From IMG/VR virus record IMGVR_UViG_2537561709_000017: a stretch of DNA of 2,325 bases; one strand, given 5' to 3'. Both the position numbers and the translations under genes were made by a program. This document shows, in pieces, positions 352-1,005 of the stretch. This DNA comes from a virus (Duplodnaviria; Heunggongvirae; Uroviricota; Caudoviricetes). The notes beneath the pieces are model-generated. The model saw nothing but the letters and a program-made list of their open reading frames with translations. It searched no databases and was not told the DNA's origin. How positions within the stretch are numbered: position 1 is the first letter of the stretch; each line of letters starts with the position of its first letter.

Positions 352-594
352 ATGTTCGCTCTGATTCAACGTGGTCAGATATACACGGACAGAGCCGGAT
401 ACCCTGTGGTGATTACTCGCAGTACTCAGCACTCAGTGTTCTTTCGACGCATGGACGGGCGCTCCGGACGGGTACGCATTGGTGAGTTCAACAACCTGTT
501 CGAACATATTGACCAACAGGAGTACCGCAAAATTCTGGCGGGCACTGAGCAGGAAATGCGCCTGAAAAAATTACGCGCAATGCAACGGAGGTGA
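352..594 (+). CDS. Hypothetical small phage protein, 80 aa, basic C-terminal tail
   Basis: ORF with ATG at 352 and TGA at 592-594, on the same strand and tightly packed with its neighbours. A G-rich stretch (GGGGA, 340-344) lies 7 nt upstream of the start. The translation is not low-complexity and has a basic tail (RLKKLRAMQRR). It may belong to a prophage DUF family, possibly DUF4222-like, but I cannot confirm this without a search. Confidence 0.6.
   Translation: MFALIQRGQIYTDRAGYPVVITRSTQHSVFFRRMDGRSGRVRIGEFNNLFEHIDQQEYRKILAGTEQEMRLKKLRAMQRR
587..591 (+). promoter_or_regulatory. Shine-Dalgarno sequence (GGAGG) for the 44-aa ORF
   Basis: GGAGG at 587-591, 6 nt upstream of ATG 598, overlapping the last codons and TGA stop (592-594) of the upstream ORF. 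Confidence 0.5.
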
Positions 595-597
595 TAC

Positions 598-732
598 ATG
601 CATACGGCTTTTGAGTTCTGGGTTCGCAAGACATTCGGCAATCGCTACGACCTGAACCGTGATGTCGACGGCTTCTACTGCCGTGAAGTTGTGAAACGAA
701 TGTTTGACGTGTGGTGCCACTGCCGTGGATGA
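598..732 (+). CDS. Small Cys/His-containing protein, 44 aa (MHTAFEFWVRKTFGNRYDLNRDVDGFYCREVVKRMFDVWCHCRG); not in the supplied ORF track
   Basis: ATG at 598 to TGA at 730-732, hand-translated. Strong SD (GGAGG) 6 nt upstream. The only minus-strand ORFs across this interval look like antisense shadows. The product has C28, C40, H41 and C42 (a C-x11-C-H-C arrangement) that could coordinate a metal ion. It is in the same frame as the upstream 80-aa ORF, separated only by TGA plus one codon. Confidence 0.45.
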   Translation: MHTAFEFWVRKTFGNRYDLNRDVDGFYCREVVKRMFDVWCHCRG

Positions 733-741
733 AAGTTTTAT

Positions 742-745
742 GAGG
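742..745 (+). promoter_or_regulatory. Shine-Dalgarno sequence (GAGG) for the excisionase-like gene
   Basis: GAGG at 742-745, 5 nt upstream of ATG 751. Confidence 0.4.
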
Positions 746-750
746 TTGGC

Positions 751-1005
751 ATGCAGACAATCATCTATCAGATAACCCCCAGCAAATGGTGTACGGAGAG
801 AGTCCTTATTGCATCAACAGGGCTAAAGCCCGGCACCATCGAGCGGGCCAGAAGAAAGTCATGGATGCAGGGAAAAGAATACCGCCATTACGCTGTAGAA
901 GGTGATCCTGGGCATTACAGTGAATGCCTGTACAACATCGAAGAAATTATGCGATGGATCGAAAACCAGAAACAACCAGGTGCCAAAAATGCAAGTTCCG
1001 GTTAA
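751..1005 (+). CDS. xis: Excisionase-like protein (recombination directionality factor), 84 aa
   Basis: Small ORF immediately upstream of, and co-oriented with, a phage tyrosine integrase, with a 33-nt intergenic gap. This is the canonical xis-int arrangement of lambdoid phages. The size and basic patches (KPGTIERARRKSWMQGKEYRHY) are consistent with a small DNA-binding protein. The call rests mainly on position and size; I did not verify sequence-level membership in an excisionase family. Confidence 0.6.
   Translation: MQTIIYQITPSKWCTERVLIASTGLKPGTIERARRKSWMQGKEYRHYAVEGDPGHYSECLYNIEEIMRWIENQKQPGAKNASSG

Follow-up and report, generated by a model that had tools for sequence, protein, structure and literature searches.

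The 2,325-nt stretch of phage DNA analyzed here, which we refer to as the window, contains two short open reading frames that follow one another in the same frame and are separated by a stop codon and one further triplet, and this layout raises the question of whether positions 352-732 hold a single gene or two. Reading the sequence directly, we confirmed the arrangement described in the first-pass annotation: ORF A starts with the ATG at 352 and ends with the TGA at 592-594 (last residues RAMQRR), a TAC triplet occupies 595-597, and ORF B opens with the ATG at 598 in the same frame. ORF B begins MHTAFEF, closes with CHCRG and ends at the TGA at 730-732; both ORFs lie in frame 1 of the plus strand. 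The other sequence features reported earlier were also found where they had been placed, including a GGAGG motif at 587-591, exactly 6 nt ahead of ATG 598, a T as the nucleotide after the TGA of ORF A, and a cluster of cysteine and histidine residues in ORF B (C28-x11-C40-H41-C42). Three readings had been proposed on this basis, namely two independent genes, a nonsense mutation that broke up one gene of about 125 aa, and readthrough of the UGA. Our analysis makes it very likely that the segment 352-732 carries two independent small genes of the exo-xis (early-left) region of a Stx1 lambdoid prophage, which are probably translationally coupled.

The window is 99.8-100% identical to the xis/int end of Stx lambdoid prophages of Escherichia coli O157:H7, the matching prophages being VT1-Sakai, YYZ-2008 and phi330. 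To the VT1-Sakai/YYZ-2008 prophage region of O157:H7 the identity is 99.9-100%. Judged by this sequence identity, the window is the xis/int end of a Stx1-converting prophage of the VT1-Sakai/YYZ-2008 type in E. coli O157:H7. The genes of the window listed below are on the plus strand. A DUF551 gene enters from the 5' edge of the window and ends at 264; it is followed by ORF A (352-594), ORF B (598-732), the xis gene for a DUF1233-type excisionase directly 3' of B (751-1005; PF06806 with 101.4 bits; phrog_539, annotated as excisionase; RefSeq name xisR), and the int gene for a tyrosine integrase of 428 aa (1039-2325, according to the ORF list and the RefSeq annotation). In strain TR01 the order is an ead/Ea22-like gene, hypothetical genes, DUF551, DUF4222, a 44-aa hypothetical protein, xisR, integrase, and the host gene mlrA. 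The prophage insertion site adjoins mlrA (yehV), and the VT1-Sakai att site is in yehV. The upstream neighbours in the full prophage include Ea22-like and TraR/DksA (Orf73-like) genes.

In RefSeq (PGAP), A and B are two separate CDSs, a DUF4222 protein (WP_000457728.1) and a hypothetical protein (WP_000556581.1), and both genes are thus already annotated. The original VT1-Sakai GenBank record annotates neither of them. The present analysis confirms the RefSeq two-CDS annotation where the original record had none, and it removes a suspected pseudogene or recoding site; the significance of this is small. We also observed that five of six consecutive plus-strand ORFs share frame 1 (starts at 76, an internal Met of DUF551, and at 352, 598, 751 and 1039), and that the gap between B and xis, consisting of the TGA plus 18 nt, is likewise in frame. 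The pattern of five genes in one frame was rejected as meaningful, since relatives such as L005 and L007 do not have it, and we regard it as a coincidence.

The two proteins belong to different families. Protein A matched the Pfam domain DUF4222 (PF13973) over residues 4-54 with 57.6 bits, well over the cutoff of 27, and the family phrog_285 over its entire length (E = 1.1e-32; residues 1-80 against profile positions 1-79 of 83). Protein B was assigned to phrog_3871 (E = 8.5e-32; residues 1-44 against profile positions 1-44 of 48), and the Pfam search gave no family for it. The equivalents of B include ORF3 of phage BP-4795 and STM0895.1n of Fels-1. The B family is small, with 27 clusters at E <= 1e-3 in a profile search of 1.84e9 representatives. 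In the window B has 44 aa, and most relatives have 48 aa (ending in CHCRGLSVV); the O157 Stx1-prophage lineage stops earlier and does not have the LSVV. The AlphaFold2 (AF2) model of A is a complete barrel-plus-helix fold that ends at residue 79, with a predicted Tudor/SH3-like beta-barrel and a long basic C-terminal helix; a sequence search of the PDB with A found no solved-structure relative.

Both A and B are protein-coding genes under purifying selection. In the annotated frame, the pN/pS ratio is 0.30 for A (32 distinct coding sequences) and 0.17 for B (35 distinct coding sequences). The variable sites in B are distributed over the three codon positions as 18/20/38, with a concentration at the third. 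The other frames gave pN/pS values above 1, save for the antisense frame that has its third codon positions in common with the annotated one.

Homologous loci were taken from the genomes of E. coli and of GTDB, from IMG/VR and from phage records, and they yielded a set of 61 distinct ungapped A-B haplotypes with a nucleotide divergence of up to 37%. The junction codon is a stop in all 61 haplotypes (TAA in 44, TGA in 13, and TAG in 4) and a sense codon in none, and at least five stop-to-stop changes were counted on a neighbour-joining tree. A stop is present in all of the approximately 159 A-B junctions as well; in 155 of 159 A-B loci ORF A has 80 aa, and in the other four it has 78 aa. Because the stop is kept while its identity drifts, it is a functional terminator; it is not a nonsense mutation of recent origin, nor is it a specific leaky codon. 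The spacer between the two ORFs always has 3 nt, and its sequence is variable: AGA in 42 haplotypes, TAC in 11, CGA in 4, AAA in 3, and ACA in one, with at least seven changes. Wherever a DUF4222 gene was found 5' of B among the collected loci, the junction consisted of a stop, 3 nt and a start.

All A-B junctions are homologous at the nucleotide level and thus represent one evolutionary event, for which the prior of a shared frame is one third. Descent from one ancestral junction accounts for the constancy of the shared frame, and it also makes the constant 3-nt spacing weak evidence for selection on the spacing itself. Among about 13 independent types of junctions upstream of B-family genes, only A-B and the junction of one further locus (L010, TGA/ATG) are in frame with a short gap, and the remaining ones are out-of-frame overlaps (ATGA, TGATG, or 8-17 nt) or gaps. 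On these comparisons, the shared frame of A and B appears to be no more than the 1-in-3 chance expectation, a functionless accident of the 3-nt spacer.

Each of the two genes is also found without the other. Loci with B but no A come from Pantoea, Citrobacter, Superficieibacter, Scandinavium, Salmonella Fels-1 (STM0895.1n), Klebsiella phages and phage CharmingMan. In these loci B follows unrelated genes that lack a Pfam match, and the junction types are ATGA, TGATG, TGA/ATG, overlaps of 8-17 nt, or a gap of 72 nt. One locus (L004) retains an intact B behind a frameshifted pseudogene of A. Three other loci (L175, L176 and L128) have A, again with 80 aa, and no B on its 3' side; in L175 and L176, the next gene is unrelated and begins about 118 nt after A. 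Every relative of B has its own Shine-Dalgarno (SD) sequence and its own start codon, ATG or GTG.

An exhaustive profile search with B detected no in-frame A-B fusion among 1.84 billion representative proteins, and none was present among the homologues of A (61 matches, almost all of 80 aa). The plausible family members in the B profile search were 32-111 aa long (27 matches at E <= 1e-3), and none of the long forms of B carries a DUF4222 domain; a word-index search with B returned 23 matches, all of at most 58 aa. All of the longer forms were inspected as candidate fusions and rejected. P0001, P0003 and P0004 are C-terminal duplications or frameshifts of B; P0027, P0029 and P0033 are chimeras that involve other upstream genes; P0051 is A with an internal duplication; in P0052 and P0062, A is joined to the upstream 27-aa ORF; and in P0069 and P0085, A continues out of frame across the 5' end of B. 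The family phrog_17609, which has 80 positions with B at 34-77, was considered as a fused form and likely consists of over-long ORFs called from upstream alternative starts. In-frame over-long B ORFs beginning at upstream alternative start codons are seen in L013, L059 and L069.

The first-pass annotation had proposed an alignment to homologues that could reveal either a continuous ORF of about 125 aa or two ORFs with a conserved stop, and it is the latter that we found. The reading as two independent genes is borne out by the separate families, by the occurrence of each gene without the other, by the purifying selection acting on each, and by B having an SD of its own. We give practically no credence to the suggestion that an ancestral gene for a protein of about 125 aa was divided into A and B when a nonsense mutation arose at 592-594; only the shared frame and the 3-nt gap in the window speak for it. 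The homologues are two ORFs, and their stop, present in all 61 haplotypes and all of the roughly 159 junctions, has been swapped among TAA, TGA and TAG at least five times and never turned into a sense codon. Moreover, the two proteins match different PHROG families, each from end to end, each occurs without the other, the model of A is a complete fold by itself, and there were zero in-frame fusions in either the 1.84e9 representatives or the word-index searches. It is also exceedingly improbable that A is the sole gene and B a spurious ORF or a non-coding spacer between A and xis. The short length of 44 aa, the lack of a Pfam family and the absence of B from the original VT1-Sakai record would fit such an explanation, but the low pN/pS ratio of 0.17 with variable sites concentrated at third positions, the strong match to phrog_3871, the SD in all relatives, and the intact ORF of 44-48 aa in at least six genera with different flanks all argue against it.

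Readthrough deserves separate consideration, since A and B are in frame at every A-B junction and UGA is the leakiest stop codon in E. coli. The first-pass annotation had raised low-level readthrough, and a stronger form of this idea holds that programmed, selected UGA readthrough yields a functional A-Trp-Tyr-B isoform beside A. We consider this very improbable. The commonest stop in the relatives is TAA (44 of 61 haplotypes) and some have TAG, so that no single mechanism is conserved; the codon that would serve as a linker varies (Tyr, Arg, Arg, Lys, and Thr); and the base at +4 is U in the window, a context (UGA-U) that is reportedly among the efficient ones for termination (Poole et al. 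1995). No RNA structure follows the stop: the junction RNA at 545-640 folds less well than shuffled sequences (z = +2.2), and Rfam gave zero matches for the junction and its surroundings. B is equipped with a strong SD and an ATG of its own and is a free-standing gene elsewhere, and common descent of one junction accounts for the constant frame. The features of programmed readthrough, that is, a conserved leaky stop and context, a conserved linker, and a distal part devoid of initiation signals, are all missing here. The A1 protein of phage Q-beta, a programmed extension by stop-codon readthrough, is similar in having an in-frame ORF after a UGA stop; in contrast, B carries an SD and an ATG of its own and is a separate gene elsewhere, the stop at the A-B junction varies in identity with a predominance of TAA, and no fusion product is on record. 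A selected readthrough isoform is thus not supported by the sequence comparisons, and nothing in them suggests any relevance for the trace near-cognate decoding of UGA that may occur in this allele. A further proposal is that A and B form an obligate two-subunit pair, with tight coupling providing a fixed stoichiometry of the complex. Of 825 matching E. coli records, 651 contain both genes and the invariant 3-nt junction, as do the 61 haplotypes, which is consistent with this, and the long C-terminal helix of A and the hairpin of B, as modelled, could in principle pack against each other. We regard such an obligate pair as improbable, however, because the upstream partner of B is any of at least eight unrelated genes and is missing in one case, A also occurs without B, and B persists where A is a frameshifted pseudogene.

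Taking A and B as two independent genes, their expression can be outlined as follows. No promoter-like or terminator-like sites were found in positions 1-1100 of the window, and by analogy to pL transcription in lambdoid phages, A and B therefore most likely share one transcript; it would also include the DUF551 gene 5' of A and the xis and int genes 3' of B. Translation of A would proceed to its natural stop and give the complete 80-aa DUF4222 protein. B would be initiated at its own ATG 598 by means of the GGAGG at 587-591, which lies within the final two sense codons of A (CGG AGG). In the window allele, the SD sequence ACGGAGGTG has a duplex energy of -10.8 kcal/mol with the anti-SD, and relatives with AAGGAAGTA at the same position have -6.0 kcal/mol. 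With 3 nt between the stop of A and the start of B, a ribosome that has terminated on A would be well placed to re-initiate on B (termination-reinitiation coupling). Given the unstructured junction and the strong SD, independent de novo initiation on B would also be possible.

The geometry typical of coupling is present in the 3-nt gap, in the SD located inside A, and in the lack of promoter-like or terminator-like sites in 1-1100, and it suggests that translation of A and B is probably coupled. In Klebsiella phage P18-100, B is located behind the 72-nt gap, so coupling is not essential to the B family. Coupled pairs with near-abutting stop and start codons include trpE-trpD and trpB-trpA of E. 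coli as well as the ATGA and TGATG overlaps of phages. The A-B junction resembles these pairs in that the stop and the start are a few nucleotides apart and the distal SD is buried in the end of the proximal gene, and other B-family genes have the classic ATGA and TGATG overlaps of phage operons. It differs from them in that the two ORFs do not overlap and are 3 nt apart, a spacing that by chance preserves the frame. Such packing of stop and start is ordinary for phage operons.

The AF2 model of B (pLDDT 72.7) contains helices at residues 3-16, 21-24 and 29-43 and is a predicted helical hairpin. A Foldseek search of this model against the PDB gave nothing at E < 6. When the B profile was compared with all PDB chains at E <= 10, the only matches were summed TALE-repeat matches and one catechol oxidase; the TALE-repeat matches were rejected as spurious, since they are sums in which no single stretch passes. 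Several multi-stretch matches to the B profile (P0044, P0045, P0047) look like the same repeat artefact.

The suggestion that the cysteine and histidine residues of B could form a small metal-binding knuckle found no support. The cluster is invariant among the close relatives of B, and so is the entire C-terminal half of the protein. In distant relatives (P0026, P0027, P0031, P0032, P0039, P0040, P0042, P0046), residues among C28, C40, H41 and C42 are replaced, P0031 having C28A, H41A and C42A. In the AF2 model, helix 29-43 begins with C28 and has C40-C42 near its other terminus, and these opposite ends would be about 18 A apart as deduced from helix geometry. A monomeric metal knuckle is thus not supported either by the predicted model or by the substitutions in distant relatives.

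The genomic context of B gives a weak hint of a functional link to the excision module. For the close clade of B, we compiled 73 distinct contexts, and in each of them one of four unrelated gene types is located within 40 nt on the 3' side: a DUF1233 excisionase (54 contexts), an AlpA-like gene (3), an HTH_17-type gene (2), or a gene of 69-71 aa (14). The latter (MGLDCVPISTYCR...) overlaps the integrase gene and has no Pfam match; from its position and size only, we take it to encode another, putative excisionase. Loci in which B lies immediately 5' of the gene preceding int include the window (598-1005), L004, L007, L010, L011, L013, L059 and L186; L006 is an exception with a 59-aa ORF between B and the next gene. 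One of these records, L010 (CACSKA010000001.1), is labelled Chryseobacterium sp. 18061 and contains a typical enterobacterial-type prophage segment with B and an AlpA-like gene, which suggests that the assembly is contaminated or mislabelled.

One diverged locus (L177, positions 2962-3336 of a contig from Logan DRR526068; P0043) encodes a natural in-frame fusion in which a DUF1233 excisionase (79.9 bits) is linked to a complete B-like domain. The fused gene is directly 5' of an intact integrase gene, and it represents a single protein cluster from two contigs. Adjacency of B and Xis across the whole family was rejected, as it fails in the most distant B-like proteins, whose genes belong to nin regions (P0042, P0046) or are two genes away from the integrase end (P0031). 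We infer that B is a small exo-xis accessory protein. The location of B beside xis may mean either that B works with the excision module or that its conserved 3' half marks a boundary of mosaic recombination. On the sequence data, it is unlikely that phrog_3871 is an undescribed accessory factor of excision or integration and not a generic exo-xis ORF. As a lead, B represents a very small phage protein family of narrow taxonomic range, whose genes consistently sit right beside xis.

A comparison with phage lambda places both genes in a familiar setting. Like the genes in the corresponding part of lambda, A and B are located between the ea22/DUF551 genes and xis-int on the early-left transcript, and they are short, tightly packed ORFs that vary between phages. 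They differ from the xis-proximal genes ea8.5 and orf55 of lambda in not being their homologues. Ea8.5 (PDB 2M7A), the product of the gene next to xis in lambda, has a homeodomain/zinc-finger hybrid fold; assignment of B to the Ea8.5 family was rejected, as the B profile had no match to 2M7A among PDB chains at E <= 10. In a 2021 modelling paper, the passages reached by a term search contained no A- or B-like protein.

RgdR (ECs1581) is the only characterized DUF4222 protein; this prophage regulator of enterohemorrhagic E. coli is an activator of LEE1 and of type III secretion and a repressor of motility (Flockhart et al. 2012, PMC3378721; PMC10877973). Protein A resembles RgdR in having the same DUF4222 domain, in being prophage-borne in the same organism, and in being small and basic. 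The differences are considerable. BLASTP aligned A and RgdR with only 37% identity over 27 residues, whereas the published RgdR orthologues share more than 77% over 99 aa (PMC3378721). At residues 7-9, A has RGQ where RgdR has the functionally important RGD (residues 20-22), and A has 80 aa compared to 99 aa in RgdR. The rgdR gene is located in a P4-like element 5' of a primase gene and not beside xis, and no B-like gene follows it. Based on the short alignment, the RGQ motif and the difference in length, we rejected A as an RgdR-type regulator of LEE. By analogy, A is probably a Tudor-like transcription co-factor, which is a reasonable guess and no more, and it could be a Tudor-like RNA-polymerase-binding co-factor related to RgdR. 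The lead that emerges is a distant paralogue of an enterohemorrhagic E. coli virulence regulator carried on a Stx1 prophage.

Just 5' of A we also noted an ORF of 28 aa at positions 261-347 on the plus strand that has no annotation in RefSeq. It encodes a hydrophobic peptide (MMNWPEAFTAVGVAIAVAFILYSLFRWG) and is preceded by a strong SD (caGGAGGTGaa); its start and the stop of the DUF551 gene overlap. The ORF is intact as 27 or 28 aa in about 127 loci, a count that includes some contigs twice. We distinguished 11 full-length variants with conservative changes, one of which comes from the very diverged locus L177 (MSWPDAFFGAACVFAMAAMVLAIIFWG). As predicted from the sequence, this ORF probably encodes a real single-pass membrane peptide, and a putative gene of this kind upstream of A represents another lead from this locus.
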